A stretch of DNA of 64,000 nucleotides from Krischvirus LF73P4. The DNA lies in the sequence record OZ035795.1; one strand, written 5' to 3'. Below are positions 26,492 to 32,495 of this stretch, piece after piece. A model generated the notes under the pieces. It was not told the origin of the DNA. It saw only the letters and a program-made list of their open reading frames with translations, and did no database searches. The position numbers were made by a program, and so were the translations under genes. Numbering within the stretch: the stretch's first letter is position 1; each line of letters begins with the position of its first letter.

Positions 26492-27055
26492 ATGAAAAGT
26501 GCGAAATTTTGGAATACTGAAATTCAAGAGGAATTAAAACGAAGATTTGGACACACGGAAGGTGTTCTATATCACAAAACAAATAGTCCGTCTTTTAATG
26601 GTCTGCCAGAGGGATATTTCTACCAAGTCGGTGATAAAGTAAAAACAAAAAAGTTAAATTACGGTCATTTGGCAATAGATGTTTACAATAAGGTTAAAAA
26701 GAGAACATCTACATATCTTGTACATAGAATTGTCTGGTTTCTTGAATATGGAACACAGGTTAAGGTAATAGACCACATAGACGGGAATCCAGAAAACAAC
26801 AATCCACCAAATTTACGGGAGGCAACACAACAACAAAACATGTACAATAAAAAGAAAATGGACGGGTGCACGAGCATATATAATGGTGTTACTCATCGCA
26901 AAGGATCTAGCAAAAGACCGTGGCAAGCACAAATAAGGATAAACGGATACAGAAAATACATAGGATCGTTTGCTACTCAGGAGGAAGCCGCTAGAGCATA
27001 TGATGAATATGCAAAAATTCATCATGGGGAGTTTGCATCTTTAAATTTTAGTTGA
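26492..27055 (+). CDS. HNH-AP2 homing endonuclease
   Basis: 187 aa; HNH segment HRIVWFLEYG...IDHIDGNPENNNPPNLREATQQQN followed by AP2-like YNGVTHRKGS.RPWQAQIRINGYRKYIGSFATQEEAARAYDEYA; starts 1 nt after gp39 stop. Confidence 0.75.
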   Translation: MKSAKFWNTEIQEELKRRFGHTEGVLYHKTNSPSFNGLPEGYFYQVGDKVKTKKLNYGHLAIDVYNKVKKRTSTYLVHRIVWFLEYGTQVKVIDHIDGNPENNNPPNLREATQQQNMYNKKKMDGCTSIYNGVTHRKGSSKRPWQAQIRINGYRKYIGSFATQEEAARAYDEYAKIHHGEFASLNFS

Positions 27056-27871: not shown

Positions 27872-28129
27872 ATGAGTCGAAGTTTTGATTTTCTGATCGC
27901 CAAGTGTCATCGAGAAAAGAAATCGATGGACCTGTTTATGAAATGTTTGAGGTATGAATATGCACACCTTCGTAAACACAAAATTGATCCGCAAGTTTCC
28001 TACGAAAACATCAAGAAATATGCGAAAGAAGTGATTGACAACGATTGCACCGTGACATATAATGCGTTTATTGATTTATGGGCGTGGGATGTAATCTACG
28101 CAGAGATGGACAAAGAAGATTTTAATTAA
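27872..28129 (+). CDS. hypothetical protein
   Basis: 85-aa ORF. Confidence 0.4.
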   Translation: MSRSFDFLIAKCHREKKSMDLFMKCLRYEYAHLRKHKIDPQVSYENIKKYAKEVIDNDCTVTYNAFIDLWAWDVIYAEMDKEDFN

Positions 28130-28143
28130 GTGAGGATTATATT

Positions 28144-30252
28144 ATGAAAATGCATATCGATAATGAAGAAGTATTTGGCAGTGACCTGAGCGGTGCGGTT
28201 GATTTTTCACTGAAAGCAAGTAGCAAGGCTTTTATGGTGCTTTCTAAGAACACTTATCAATATTGTGAGCGTGCTTGCGTCCGTGAGTATTCGTGCAATG
28301 CTACCGACACTCACAAAGAAGCCGGAACCTTAGATCGTCCGTTTGATATTCATTTACCGACTGCAATCGAACCGTATTTTTCTGTGCGTGATTATGGTAC
28401 GGGTATTCCGTCTAAGAAAGAATTAGAACAACTGTTTACGGTTTACTTTGAATCAACAAAAGACCAGACTAATGATTATATCGGATCTTTTGGTTTAGGT
28501 GCGAAGTCTGCTTATAGCTATACTGACACCTTTACAATCGTAAACTACTACAATGGTCGCGCTTATGGCTTTACTGCATTTGTGCAAAACTCTATGCCGA
28601 AAATGGTGCAGATTTTCGACGAACCGACCTATGAAGACAACGGTCTGAAAATCACTATTCCGGTGAAAGAAAAAGACATTCAGACATGGCATCGAGAAGC
28701 ACAATTTGTACTTCGTCATTTTGGGGAACACAAACCTAATATCAATGCAATCGAAATTAATTATTTCCCTAGCTTTGATAATTATTATGTTTGCAATGGG
28801 CGTGATAACGATTCCTATGTAGTATATGCAATCATGGGTAAGATCCAGTATCCGATCCCGTATGAATATGTTCGCGGAACATGGTTAGAAGCTGTAAACC
28901 GCCAGCACCAGACCATTTACATTAATTTTGATTTGGGTGATCTGGACCTGATGCCATCGCGCGAAGAAGTTCACTTGTCAATCGAGACTAAAGCGAACAT
29001 CGAAAAACGTATTGCAGAAATCAATGAAATGATGTTGGAAAAGGTTAAAGAAAAGATCGCCAACATTAAAACAGAGCGTAAACTTGCGCAATTTATGAGC
29101 GAGTATTCATCGACTCAACGCAATATTATTAGCAAGATGGGTAAGATCGGGCAGTGGGATGATCCGGTAGCAATCTATAATAAGTTTGTGAATGCGGGTA
29201 AAGATTCGCCTAGTGACGTAGAAGGTCAGGTGTATACTCTGTATCGTACTCGTCACACAATCAGTAAATTGCGCCCTGCTTTCGTTAGCAGTCAATACAA
29301 CATTACGCATTTTGTATGGATGCATAAAGAAGATATTCTGTGTGTAATTGATGATACCGATAAACCGAAACTGCGTGCACTGACTCTTAACGGCATGGTC
29401 CAGGAATACGGAATCAATAAAAAGGTACTGGTGTTCCGTCAGCGCAACGAAAAACATATGGAGACTTTCGAGTACATCAAACAGTATTATGATGAATCTG
29501 AAATGACCGTGATTAAGGTATCAGAGGCCGATGATCTGCGTGCTAAAGCAGTTAAACCGGAAAAGACCGAGCGTACACAACGTGAAGCGACTCCCAAGCT
29601 GCCTAACGTGTATATCATGGAAAAGATTGGTGACAGTTGGCATAAAACCAGCCATCACATGAAAGCGGCAGAGATTCGCGAGTTATCAGGCTTGCACATG
29701 TTCCGCGTAGGTGATGCATTCGAAAGCCGTAGTCGTAAATCGATCTATAGTGAAAATACATTACACACGGCGCTTGACTACTTCGGGGTAACAAAGTATA
29801 TTATTACTCGAAACGAGACACAAAAATATCTCGTTGACGAACAATTGGAATGTGCGCTAGAATTTGTTCGCGGTAAGCTGGCTGGTCTGGCTAAGAAGGT
29901 TAAGACCAATCATCTGGGGTATGGCGAATATCTGGGTGTGATCACTATGTTGTTTCATGACGATGAACTAGAACGCTGTGTTCCAGAATTTATTGACAGA
30001 CTGTACGGTCGTCATTATAATAAAGAGGTTTCCAAGTTACTCCTTCGTACTCGTTGGATTATGGACGAAGAAACTAAAAAGATCTGTGATGAAAAATTCA
30101 CGGCAGCAAACGAACGAATTAAAGCAGTTTGTGCGAAGTTTAAAGAGAATAGCCCGTTACTGTATGATATTGTAGATAACTGGTATCGTATTCTGCATAA
30201 CGACAAACGCGCACAAGACTTTATGAAACTGGTTAAGAATGTTAAATTTTAA
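28144..30252 (+). CDS. rIIA: rIIA protein (histidine-kinase-like ATPase fold)
   Basis: 702 aa; NDYIGSFGLGAKSAYSYTDTFTIVNYY and the Bergerat-fold segment match recalled T4 rIIA; followed by rIIB. Confidence 0.85.
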   Translation: MKMHIDNEEVFGSDLSGAVDFSLKASSKAFMVLSKNTYQYCERACVREYSCNATDTHKEAGTLDRPFDIHLPTAIEPYFSVRDYGTGIPSKKELEQLFTVYFESTKDQTNDYIGSFGLGAKSAYSYTDTFTIVNYYNGRAYGFTAFVQNSMPKMVQIFDEPTYEDNGLKITIPVKEKDIQTWHREAQFVLRHFGEHKPNINAIEINYFPSFDNYYVCNGRDNDSYVVYAIMGKIQYPIPYEYVRGTWLEAVNRQHQTIYINFDLGDLDLMPSREEVHLSIETKANIEKRIAEINEMMLEKVKEKIANIKTERKLAQFMSEYSSTQRNIISKMGKIGQWDDPVAIYNKFVNAGKDSPSDVEGQVYTLYRTRHTISKLRPAFVSSQYNITHFVWMHKEDILCVIDDTDKPKLRALTLNGMVQEYGINKKVLVFRQRNEKHMETFEYIKQYYDESEMTVIKVSEADDLRAKAVKPEKTERTQREATPKLPNVYIMEKIGDSWHKTSHHMKAAEIRELSGLHMFRVGDAFESRSRKSIYSENTLHTALDYFGVTKYIITRNETQKYLVDEQLECALEFVRGKLAGLAKKVKTNHLGYGEYLGVITMLFHDDELERCVPEFIDRLYGRHYNKEVSKLLLRTRWIMDEETKKICDEKFTAANERIKAVCAKFKENSPLLYDIVDNWYRILHNDKRAQDFMKLVKNVKF

Positions 30253-30263
30253 GAGGTGATATT

Positions 30264-30395
30264 ATGACTAAACTGACCGCTATCCAGAAAGAAACCATCC
30301 GTAAACAATACGCTCGCGGCTTGACTAAAGGCGAACTGGCACGAATCTATAATGTATCAGACCGCACAATCCGCAAGGTTGTAGAAGCAAAATAA
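30264..30395 (+). CDS. 43-aa helix-turn-helix mini-protein, paralogous to the rIIB N-terminus
   Basis: Not in track; MTKLTAIQKETIRKQYARGLTKGELARIYNVSDRTIRKVVEAK; G.T..ELA....VS.RT..RV pattern shared with rIIB residues about 30-55. Confidence 0.45.
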   Translation: MTKLTAIQKETIRKQYARGLTKGELARIYNVSDRTIRKVVEAK

Positions 30396-30457
30396 TTCTG
30401 GTATAATGATGTGAATCGGGCGGCGATAGTCGCCCAACTAATAGAGGAATGAATACT

Positions 30458-31450
30458 ATGACTAAAGCAAAAATCACCGTCTCTGACCGTAACGTTCAAT
30501 GCCTGGATTCTGCGAAACAAATCAAACTGGCTAAACAGTGGGGCGAAGGTAAGTTTACTACCCGCGAAGCACTTGCGGCAGCATTTGGTGTATCTCGTCG
30601 CACTGCCTCCCGTGTATTACTGATTCAGAAAGACGCAGTAGCGGAAGGTCGCAAGGCACTAGAAAAACGTAAAGCACGCCGTAAAACCAGTAAAGGAAAA
30701 GGCGGTGAACGCGCAAAAAAGCCCGTGACTACTTCCTCAAAAATCGTAGCCATAGCCTCAACTAAGTTTATTACTATTACATGTGGTGACATTGTTTATA
30801 CTGCTGATCCATCACATGTTAACTTTAATGAAGCACTGGAAGCGATTAAACATAATGATTTCATCAAAGCTATTACGCTGATTGACATTAAGAAAGCGGT
30901 TGAAGTATATTATCACGGCGCTTTCCGTATCGAAAATGGTATTGTGTATTATCATAATATTGTTCTTGATAATAATCTGACTCGTCGAGTTGTGGAGTCG
31001 ATTAAAGAGAATAAGCCATATACGCACTATCTGAACTTCTTTGAGAAGTGCAAGAAAAACCCTAGCCGTAAGGCCGTAGATCGTCTATTTGACTTCTTAG
31101 AGCACAACGACATTGAGATCGTGGAAGATGGTTGTTTCTATGCATGGAAACGTGTTGATGTTGATTATAAAGATTTCTTTACGCATACGTTTGATAATAG
31201 CCCAGGTCGCACGGTTAAAATGAAGCGTAAAGACGTGGACCCAGATGATGATCGCACTTGCTCTAATGGCCTCCACGTTGCAGCGAAACACTATATTCCG
31301 CACTATGGCGGTGGACGAGGCCGAATCATTAAATGTAAAGTTGATCCGCGTCACGTTGTAAGTATCCCGAAAGATTATGCGAATGCCAAAATGCGCTGTC
31401 ATCGTTACTATGTGGTTGAAGATGTAACCGAAGGTTTTAGCCATTACTAA
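30458..31450 (+). CDS. rIIB: rIIB protein
   Basis: Track ORF 30449..31450; NPSRKAVDRLFDFL..NDIEI.EDG.FYAWK; TFDN.PG..VKM.R..V; C..GLHV..K.YI.H.G; VSIP.DY..AKMR...Y.VVEDVTE.F match recalled T4 rIIB. Confidence 0.85.
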   Translation: MTKAKITVSDRNVQCLDSAKQIKLAKQWGEGKFTTREALAAAFGVSRRTASRVLLIQKDAVAEGRKALEKRKARRKTSKGKGGERAKKPVTTSSKIVAIASTKFITITCGDIVYTADPSHVNFNEALEAIKHNDFIKAITLIDIKKAVEVYYHGAFRIENGIVYYHNIVLDNNLTRRVVESIKENKPYTHYLNFFEKCKKNPSRKAVDRLFDFLEHNDIEIVEDGCFYAWKRVDVDYKDFFTHTFDNSPGRTVKMKRKDVDPDDDRTCSNGLHVAAKHYIPHYGGGRGRIIKCKVDPRHVVSIPKDYANAKMRCHRYYVVEDVTEGFSHY

Positions 31451-31464
31451 CAGAGGAATTAATT

Positions 31465-31791
31465 ATGGTTGATATGAAAGTTACTTGCGAAAGTGCACAT
31501 GTTGAAGTTGAAAGTAGCCAATATTCATTGCGTCCGTCCGGTCGTGTTACTGTGACTATGGATGATGTTGATTTGGTTAATAATGTTAGTGTTGAAGATA
31601 TCGTTAATGAGTATGATCATAGCGAACTGCTAGACGCAATTCCTGAACATGTTGTTATCCAGCACGTAGTAAGCAATAATGATCCATCGACTTTCATTAA
31701 AGAATATGGCGCTGATGAAATGCTCGATGAAATTGGCGAAAAGATTGTTATTGCATGGCTTGAAAACAACGGTTATACTGTAGAACAATAA
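31465..31791 (+). CDS. hypothetical acidic protein
   Basis: 108-aa ORF followed by GC-rich hairpin. Confidence 0.45.
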   Translation: MVDMKVTCESAHVEVESSQYSLRPSGRVTVTMDDVDLVNNVSVEDIVNEYDHSELLDAIPEHVVIQHVVSNNDPSTFIKEYGADEMLDEIGEKIVIAWLENNGYTVEQ

Positions 31792-31836
31792 TCAACATAG
31801 GCCGCTTTGCGCGGCCTTTCTTAGAGGGAATACATT

Positions 31837-32130
31837 ATGACAGTCACGGTTATTACCAAATACGACGACGAAAATGTGATTTACGGTGATGTGGTTGTTG
31901 TTCACGGTCGTAGCATGAAAGTTACTGGCAATTGTAAAGATGGTGCTATTATTTGCGGTGAATTGGTGAGAACAGTCAATCCTATCACCGACGAACAAAA
32001 GCGAGTCATTATCAGAAAACTTAAAGACAGTGGATATTGTAACGTCGTGGTGATTCAAGAAAAAATTGAAGTAGGCCAATTATACACAAATCAGAAAACA
32101 ATTCCGGTATCAATGGTTAAAGGCGGTTAA
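31837..32130 (+). CDS. hypothetical protein
   Basis: 97-aa ORF. Confidence 0.45.
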   Translation: MTVTVITKYDDENVIYGDVVVVHGRSMKVTGNCKDGAIICGELVRTVNPITDEQKRVIIRKLKDSGYCNVVVIQEKIEVGQLYTNQKTIPVSMVKGG

Positions 32131-32132
32131 TA

Positions 32133-32495
32133 ATGCTAGGTCATTCTAAAATAGAAGATTGCTCATTCAGAGCAATGAAAGATGATTTTTCGGTCCTGTA
32201 CGCGTCTATCCGAGAGTTGTTTGTAGATTTTAAGCAATTCAGAGAATACAAAGGAGTTAAGATGCGGGAGTGGGTATTCTGGCCTTTCTATATCATTACT
32301 CTGTTTTCTATGGTATTTTGTTTTGTCGGGATCACTATCGCTAGTTTTGTCACTTGCGTTTTCCTGATTATCAGGTGTATCATGTTTGCTTTGATTGCTG
32401 CCCCGTTTATTGTGTCAATCCTTCCGTTAAAATGGCTATTGGATTGGGCTGATAAATCTGATAAAGTAAAGAATGTGATTTGTAAGCGTGTATGA
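32133..32495 (+). CDS. hypothetical integral membrane protein
   Basis: 120 aa; two long hydrophobic segments (FWPFYIITLFSMVFCFVGITIASFVTCVFLII and IMFALIAAPFIVSILPL). Confidence 0.45.
   Translation: MLGHSKIEDCSFRAMKDDFSVLYASIRELFVDFKQFREYKGVKMREWVFWPFYIITLFSMVFCFVGITIASFVTCVFLIIRCIMFALIAAPFIVSILPLKWLLDWADKSDKVKNVICKRV

Follow-up and report, generated by a model that had tools for sequence, protein, structure and literature searches.

The genes rIIA and rIIB in T4-type bacteriophages rank with the best known in all of genetics, but the biochemical mechanism of their products is still unknown. The frameshift experiments of 1961 reportedly used the start of T4 rIIB, the 'B1' segment, which is said to be tolerant of gross change. 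Almost every RIIB protein opens with a three-helix helix-turn-helix (HTH) domain, found at about residues 7-45 of the T4 protein and forming the N-terminal part of the families PF26926 (Phage_T4_rIIB) and phrog_609. Iyer et al. (2021; PMC7824862) count RIIB among putative transcription factors. The protein is required to counter RexAB, and it also sets off gasdermin systems of bacteria (bioRxiv 10.1101/2023.05.28.542683). Comparable tri-helical HTHs, such as CENP-B_N, the HTH_7 domain of resolvase and Hin, and those of IstA and Sigma70 region 4, are likewise domains of larger enzymes or factors. Here we describe an arrangement in which such a domain stands alone. In a stretch of 64,000 nucleotides of Krischvirus LF73P4 (sequence record OZ035795.1; hereafter the window), a 43-amino-acid open reading frame (ORF), which we call the mini-ORF, lies between rIIA and rIIB. 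We show that it is a real, selected gene whose product belongs, at the level of sequence profiles, to the same HTH family as the RIIB N-terminus. With moderate confidence, we regard it as a free-standing RIIB N-terminal HTH that arose by duplication or fission of the 5' end of rIIB and that would act in trans in the rII system. The three genes are as follows.

28144-30252, plus strand: rIIA, 702 amino acids, with a GHKL-ATPase-like N-terminus (phrog_612 RIIA, E 2e-188; annotated as rIIA in RB49 and relatives).
30264-30395, plus strand: the mini-ORF, 43 amino acids, a stand-alone three-helix HTH corresponding to RB49p274 and to PHROG 15481.
30458-31450, plus strand: rIIB, 330 amino acids from the annotated start (phrog_609, E 3e-106).

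The sequence-only reading of this DNA had drawn attention to a 43-amino-acid ORF between rIIA and rIIB, and the ORF is present exactly as it was given there. It is a gene that is already annotated but uncharacterised. The 600 bp around it match 58 phage records at 95-99.7% identity, all of them Krischvirus (RB49, Phi1, JSE, GEC-3S and relatives), T4-type phages with E. coli and Shigella as hosts, and the mini-ORF is found in all 58 of these genomes. It is labelled 'hypothetical protein' nearly everywhere, the single exception being phage W115, where it is a 'DNA binding HTH domain protein'. The peptide matches PHROG 15481, a family of unknown function, with an E-value of 3e-34 and 117.7 bits, its residues 1-43 covering all 43 positions of the profile. 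A literature search on RB49, rIIB and the rIIB HTH nowhere met a discussion of it.

That the mini-ORF is a real, selected gene rather than a chance ORF follows from its conservation. A search of 5.8 billion proteins returned relatives that were all 43 amino acids long and 69-98% identical, on contigs where the order rIIA, mini-ORF, rIIB is kept. Besides the window, we compared three diverged metagenomic lineages, L003, L004/L005 and L007/L008, the last of which is a fourth lineage with a version of 45 amino acids. In all four the mini-ORF is intact at 43-45 amino acids, always between rIIA and rIIB, and its Shine-Dalgarno sequence is kept. Identity between the lineages is 71-84% for the mini-ORF, 55-63% for rIIB and 35-45% for rIIA. 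The proportion of nonsynonymous differences (pN) is 0.10-0.25 against a synonymous proportion (pS) of 0.48-0.86, at which synonymous sites are near saturation; estimates of dN/dS, where they can be made, are about 0.07-0.33. A scan of IMG/VR with the mini-ORF alignment gave no new lineage, only two Krischvirus contigs and an unrelated Xre-like protein of a high-GC phage (L021). These data bear on the suggestion that the mini-ORF has no function and is what recombination left of the 5' part of an old rIIB, now decaying and either untranslated or without a role. In keeping with a relic, its function is unknown, it is 'hypothetical' in nearly all records, and the first part of T4 rIIB is said to tolerate gross sequence change without loss of rII function. 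A relic would not, however, be expected to keep its length and reading frame in four lineages across saturating synonymous divergence, to be better conserved than both flanking genes, to retain a Shine-Dalgarno sequence or to give a confident fold prediction even from a shallow alignment, and we consider this explanation very improbable.

The proposal that the peptide is a small HTH was borne out. It matches the Pfam family CENP-B_N (PF04218) at 26 bits, above the gathering cut-off of 21.2, and every other Pfam HTH family in the scan fell under its own cut-off. Its AlphaFold model has a predicted local distance difference test (pLDDT) score of 90.7 and three helices (residues 6-18, 22-28 and 33-41). 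The RIIB model (pLDDT 88.7) shows the same pattern in its N-terminal domain, with helices at 18-29, 36-42 and 47-56; overall, rIIB of the window comprises a diverged HTH at residues ~13-56, a disordered lysine-rich linker at 78-95 and a conserved core. The top Foldseek matches of the mini-ORF model are the DNA-bound HTHs of IstA, gamma-delta resolvase, Hin and CENP-B, at template modelling (TM) scores of 0.74-0.83; their E-values are not significant for a domain so small (best 0.096), so we draw nothing from them about specific targets. A PDB sequence search with the mini-ORF and rIIB gave nothing useful, only 2lvs at an E-value of 0.13, and Foldseek of the RIIB model against the PDB gave no credible match to the core and no mechanistic lead. 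Assignment of the mini-ORF as a Mor/C-type late transcription activator was rejected. The full Mor domain combines an N-terminal dimerisation part with a C-terminal HTH, but of the 107 positions in its profile the match takes in no more than 60-93, and its 17.6 bits fall short of the cut-off of 24.9. The peptide is very basic (11 lysine or arginine residues against 4 aspartate or glutamate), and this composition, together with the conserved third helix and the modelled likeness to DNA-bound HTHs, suggests that it may bind DNA.

The relationship of this fold to RIIB is clearest at the level of profiles. A family-wide hidden Markov model (HMM) contained the window's own sequences and was circular for specificity, and we therefore used an HMM built from 91 rIIB N-termini with the RB49 clade left out. 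Against 1028 six-frame segments of the window, it made exactly two matches: the mini-ORF at 47.3 bits (E 6e-14) and the N-terminus of the window's own rIIB at 30.0 bits (E 1.5e-8). In a cross-validation with whole clusters held out, true rIIB N-domains scored 23-70 bits (median 58) and the mini-ORF 46.5. Conversely, an HMM of six mini-ORFs matches residues ~5-45 in 113 of 122 rIIB proteins. The highest score is 33.5 bits, with T4 rIIB at 11.4 bits and the window's own rIIB among the weakest at 2.2 bits. When the peptide was compared by tblastn with 50,697 phage genomes (2.3 Gb), the best non-orthologous matches were rIIB N-termini, led by Jiaodavirus (52.5% identity over residues 1-39, E 0.02), with Serratia X20, CC31 and others next. 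Among 383 weak matches, roughly 300 appear from the genus name to be T4-like rIIB, and most of the others are actinophage HTH proteins. The shared motif is L-x3-Q/E-K-x2-I...G-x-T/S-K-x-x-LA-x-x-[YF]-x-VS-x-[RD]-T-I-x-[RK]-V, and residues A40, S46, T49 and R52, which belong to the positions with at least 90% conservation when the N-terminal parts of 56 rIIB proteins are compared, align by inspection with A26, S32, T35 and K38 of the mini-ORF. Judged by these profiles, the mini-ORF and the RIIB N-terminal HTH are members of one HTH family.

This relationship is not the one first proposed, in which the mini-ORF was a recognisable paralogue of the N-terminus of the neighbouring rIIB. The T4 rIIB N-terminus, MYNIKCLTKNEQAEIVKLYSSGNYTQQELADWQGVSVDTIRRVLK, is visibly nearer the mini-ORF than the window's own rIIB is, and the mini-ORF is not a close paralogue of its neighbour but stands much nearer the canonical N-termini of T4 and Jiaodavirus; alignment with rIIB N-termini of T4-like phages upheld family membership at profile level, with the phage's own rIIB among the poorest partners. 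Nor does the literal pattern put forward for both sequences, G-x-T-x-x-E-L-A-x(4)-V-S-x-R-T-x-x-R-V, occur exactly in either: rIIB requires a 2-residue gap and has E-A-L-A, and the mini-ORF has T-I-R-K-V. The mini-ORF differs further from the RIIB N-domain in being a separate cistron with its own stop codon (30393-30395), unattached to the RIIB linker and core, and in coexisting with a second, more diverged HTH that is still on RIIB.

The position of the mini-ORF also points to rIIB. Two elements upstream of it are relevant here.

29993-30021, plus strand: a predicted sigma-70 promoter, TTGACA-17-TATAAT, matching the consensus at 12 of 12 positions, inside the 3' end of rIIA and 242 nucleotides upstream of the mini-ORF.
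30253-30263, plus strand: the 11-nucleotide divide between rIIA and the mini-ORF, with the Shine-Dalgarno sequence GAGGTGA at 30253-30259, read directly.

The ribosome-binding site that the sequence-only reading ascribed to the mini-ORF is a strong one, abutting the rIIA stop codon (30250-30252) and ending 4 nucleotides before the ATG. The divide between the rIIA stop and the mini-ORF start reads TAA-GAGGTGATATT-ATG; in T4 the divide between the rIIA stop and the rIIB start reads TAA-TAAGGAAAATT-ATG and is also 11 nucleotides long. In the relatives the spacing is 11 nucleotides (L004), 10 (L007) and 4 (L003), and the RB49 record is circularly opened at the divide between rIIA and the mini-ORF, following the T4 convention. 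The promoter in the 3' end of rIIA likely drives a transcript of the mini-ORF and rIIB. An equivalent perfect site lies 193 nucleotides upstream of the mini-ORF in L007, L003 and L004 have sites matching at 10 of 12 positions, and L011, a lineage without the mini-ORF, has a 10 of 12 site 272 nucleotides upstream of rIIB. Given the 11-nucleotide divide and the comparable upstream promoters, the mini-ORF sits in the slot of the rIIB 5' end. The start of rIIB itself we place at the ATG at 30458 because its Shine-Dalgarno sequence, GAGGA (30444-30448), lies 9 nucleotides before that codon and because RB49 and GEC-3S are so annotated; mechanical ORF calling opens the frame at the ATG at 30449 (333 amino acids). 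A second perfect match to the sigma-70 promoter consensus (TTGACA-17-TATAAT, 12 of 12) occurs at 28035-28063 on the plus strand, upstream of rIIA, and the region holds 17 promoter-like sites where 9.8 are expected.

The distribution of the mini-ORF across relatives is also informative. Each of the four lineages that make up the rIIB clade nearest the window (rIIB identity 54-63%) has it, and in seven outgroups (two metagenomic lineages, Dhakavirus, Biquartavirus, Bragavirus, Lazarusvirus and Jiaodavirus) rIIA is followed directly by an rIIB with one HTH. The free-standing copy is thus a clade-specific state. Within the clade, rIIB of the window, of L004 (P0008) and of L007 (P0007) has about 10 extra N-terminal residues and then a diverged HTH ending ...GVSRRTASRV[LI]L. 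The L003 rIIB (P0009; 4685-6064 of ENA contig ERZ27260015 k141_60519) has 459 amino acids and carries three HTH modules in tandem at residues ~6-42, 62-97 and 150-183, of which one is canonical and the other two are diverged, so that the L003 locus including its mini-ORF holds four copies of the module. Another protein, the giant RIIB variant P0186 (775 amino acids), has two N-terminal RIIB-type HTHs, an insert of ~400 residues and, at its C-terminus, a RIIB core that matches the core profile at an E-value of 8e-55. In these multi-HTH proteins the extra modules, unlike the free mini-ORF, are part of one polypeptide. They nevertheless indicate that the RIIB N-terminal HTH is duplicable, and by sequence it is a separable cassette present in one to three copies per RIIB.

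Position, distribution, module plasticity and profile scores together make it most economical, and likely, that the mini-ORF arose when the 5' end of rIIB was partially duplicated or split off. According to this scheme, the ancestor of the RB49-like clade would have multiplied the HTH module at the 5' end of rIIB, as in L003 rIIB today. The first copy would then have become a separate cistron through a stop codon with a promoter, a hairpin and a new ribosome-binding site after it. The free copy would have stayed near the canonical sequence, and the copy attached to RIIB would have diverged; the 34 bits scored by the attached copy in the cross-validation, against the median of 58 for canonical domains, fits relaxed or altered constraint.

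Several observations weigh against descent of the mini-ORF from rIIB. BLASTP finds no meaningful alignment between the mini-ORF and the window's own rIIB. A Smith-Waterman alignment places the two HTHs in register, with 12 identities over 37 aligned residues and one 2-residue gap, at a marginal score of 41 (z = 3.1-3.6; equalled by 0.6-1.4% of shuffles). These results are too weak for pairwise comparison alone to carry a claim of relationship, and the paralogy called recognisable in the sequence-only reading is clear only at profile level. The L003 rIIB carries a canonical N-terminal HTH in addition to the mini-ORF, so a simple history in which the first domain was cut off fails for some lineages. 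No relative with the mini-ORF fused to rIIB, which the sequence-only reading had proposed to look for, was found among the relatives or in the protein searches. In the PHROG comparison, the peptide scores higher with a 'DNA binding protein' family (25.9 bits) and a 'late transcriptional activator' family (24.7) than with the RIIB family (14.9). When 1.84 billion representative proteins were scanned with the mini-ORF profile, giving 304 matches at E-values up to 0.001, the best single-domain matches, at 40-49 bits, were C-terminal HTHs of NUMOD4/HNH_3 and GIY-YIG endonucleases, with a T5orf172 protein, a Mor-type activator, small stand-alone HTHs and multi-HTH arrays in the same range; a RIIB core is present in only one of the matches listed. 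One of the small stand-alone HTHs, P0197, scores 48 bits on the rIIB N-terminus profile, equal to the mini-ORF, although it is not an rII protein. Neither P0197 nor a second such protein, P0253, adjoins rII genes, and both were rejected as further cases of the rIIA, mini-ORF, rIIB arrangement. Sequence by itself is no proof of descent from rIIB, as against descent from some other member of the HTH family.

These observations raise the alternative that the mini-ORF is an independently acquired generic HTH, either the DNA-binding module left by, or taken from, a homing endonuclease that had inserted at the junction of rIIA and rIIB, or a small phage transcription factor. It would then be a free-standing regulator unrelated to RII, and its likeness to RIIB would reflect only membership of a large HTH family. 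The scores of P0144 (NUMOD4 and HNH_3), P0162 (HNH_3), P0195 (GIY-YIG), P0229 (Mor-type) and small HTHs, at 40-49 bits, exceed the 33.5 bits of the best rIIB N-terminus. The C-terminal HTHs of the endonucleases P0144, P0162 and P0195 show the highest single-domain similarity to the mini-ORF (22 identities over 39 aligned residues, 49 bits) and share with it the opening '(A/S/T)KLT-x2-Q-x3-IR-x2-Y-x2-G'. Homing endonucleases are plentiful in T4-type genomes, and the window holds one such candidate, a homing-endonuclease-like ORF of 187 amino acids at 26492-27055 on the plus strand (HNH_3 at 51.8 bits, with AP2 matched below threshold), which lies some 1 kb upstream of rIIA. Moreover RB49-type phages are not known to have the MotA middle-mode system of T4, so that other small regulators could serve them. 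However, the comparison of scores is uneven, as it sets the extreme tail of 1.84 billion proteins, pre-selected for likeness to the mini-ORF, against about 120 rIIB proteins. On a profile made from rIIB alone, mini-ORFs hold ranks 1-3, 5, 7 and 8, that is six of the top eight, and stand above nearly all of the matches from the universal scan, and the endonuclease HTHs P0144, P0162, P0220 and P0228 rank below them at less than 31 bits; among real phage genomes, rIIB N-termini are the best matches. The endonuclease HTHs are C-terminal, whereas the mini-ORF domain opens at the initiator methionine, and the Pfam scan found no nuclease domain linked to it. The 4-11 nucleotides between the rIIA stop and the mini-ORF ATG in the four lineages leave no space for a nuclease remnant, and that ATG lies exactly at the canonical rIIB start position. 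An independent acquisition is accordingly unlikely in our estimation, if a good deal more credible than a relic, and a free-standing RIIB N-terminal HTH remains the reading we prefer.

The scan of 1.84 billion representative proteins also returned proteins with 4-7 tandem copies of the KLT...Q..IR..Y..G module (P0126, P0127 and P0128). P0128 has several near-identical repeats of 'IELPxEQIKSEYESGMTQRELxxKYGVSxxTIRNRLIEAGVQTR'.

The region between the mini-ORF and rIIB contains two further elements, both of which the sequence-only reading had picked out and both of which are present.

30379-30407, plus strand: a promoter-like sequence, TTGTAG-17-TATAAT, with the extended -10 element TGgTATAAT at 30399-30407, 50 nucleotides upstream of the rIIB ATG.
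30418-30435, plus strand: an RNA hairpin, GGGCGGC-GAUA-GUCGCCC, with a 7-bp GC-rich stem and a GAUA loop, present in both the minimum free energy and centroid folds and lying between the promoter and the rIIB ribosome-binding site.

The first is promoter-like by sequence, the final codons of the mini-ORF overlap with its -35 element, and the annotation of GEC-3S places a promoter at its counterpart. Among the relatives, L003 has the identical TTCTGGTATAATG, the corresponding place in L004 reads TTGACA-17-TACAAT, and L007 lacks a good match. Stable, GC-rich hairpins of 7-9 bp and of unrelated sequence occur in every rIIA-to-rIIB intergenic region examined (L003 4634-4653, L007 3464-3481, L004 2722-2745 and L009 3421-3440); in L004 the loop contains the -10 hexamer of the rIIB promoter, and in the outgroup L009 the hairpin follows rIIA and precedes the promoter. 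The hairpin was rejected as an intrinsic terminator, since it lacks a T-run and a terminator scan made no call, and also as an operator for the HTH, the hairpin sequence being wholly different between lineages while the recognition helix is invariant. Because pairing is conserved without sequence, and the recognition helix is unchanging, the hairpin looks like an RNA-level element, which might serve, for example, in mRNA end protection or processing or in read-through attenuation.

These features also bear on the idea of a split gene, which was put forward alongside partial duplication. In such a gene, frameshifting, read-through or RNA processing would join the mini-ORF to rIIB and give a full-length RIIB with two HTHs. 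The two frames are adjacent on one strand with a hairpin between them, and multi-HTH RIIBs do exist. However, the offsets from start to start, 194 nucleotides in the window, 202 in L003, 190 in L007 and 197 in L004, correspond to frames +2, +1, +1 and +2, so no single recoding event could be conserved among the lineages. Furthermore, the 62-nucleotide spacer carries a promoter and a separate Shine-Dalgarno sequence for rIIB, and both the sequence of the hairpin and its place relative to the promoter vary. On the frame offsets we reject recoding or fusion of the mini-ORF with rIIB, and regard a split gene as extremely unlikely; of the two origins proposed together, duplication or fission is the likely one and a gene rejoined by recoding is not.

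Some observations on the surrounding region and its annotation should be recorded. The gene order is rIIA, mini-ORF, rIIB, three small ORFs and the topoisomerase II gene 52, and in the Pfam scan rIIA matched HATPase_c_3 weakly. The three small conserved ORFs between rIIB and gene 52 (31465-32495, plus strand) belong to phrog_14049, 14759 and 16033, the last with predicted membrane-like hydrophobic stretches; T4 carries denB and ndd in their place, and there is one small ORF after rIIB in L007 and two in L003. The profile of phrog_609 ('RIIB lysis inhibitor') has 1055 positions, of which the first ~320 match rIIA and the last ~310 match rIIB, and its first part matches residues 20-314 of the window's rIIA at an E-value of 2e-62. 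It evidently derives in part from rIIA-rIIB fusions or merged gene calls and can therefore mislabel rIIA as rIIB; in OR354875 both genes are labelled RIIB.

For how the free HTH might work, we propose the following scheme. The peptide would probably be made early, both by transcription that reads through from rIIA and from the strong promoter in the 3' end of rIIA. Through its conserved helix 3 (S32-D-R-T-I-R-K-V39) it would probably bind nucleic acid, or the partner of the RIIB N-domain. It would thereby supply in trans what the N-terminal HTH supplies in cis in the RIIB of other phages, and it may be functionally coupled to RIIA and RIIB. The tolerance to change reported for the B1 segment fits an autonomous, accessory module. 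More tentatively, RB49-like phages might have a three-gene rII system of RIIA, RIIB and a free HTH, the last being the ancestral rIIB 5' end and serving as a trans-acting targeting subunit that binds DNA or RIIA. We offer this as a possibility that we consider doubtful at present.

What is new here is that the mini-ORF is recognised as the RIIB N-terminal HTH in a free-standing copy, which is conserved across a clade, lies where rIIB canonically starts and is better conserved than RIIA or RIIB. It is a modest variant of a classic locus and not a new kind of system, with a function that we infer, and its recognition would put right how a 'hypothetical protein' is annotated that every one of the 58 sequenced Krischvirus genomes carries. 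It would also provide a natural 'domain-in-trans' system for the role of the HTH, in which the peptide could be deleted, tagged or separately supplied with the RIIB core untouched. If the three-gene reading is true, the classically 'dispensable' first segment of rIIB would be an autonomous functional module with a selectable role of its own, and that role could be to tune which host defences are blocked or triggered, including RexAB-type exclusion and RIIB-sensing gasdermin/NLR systems.

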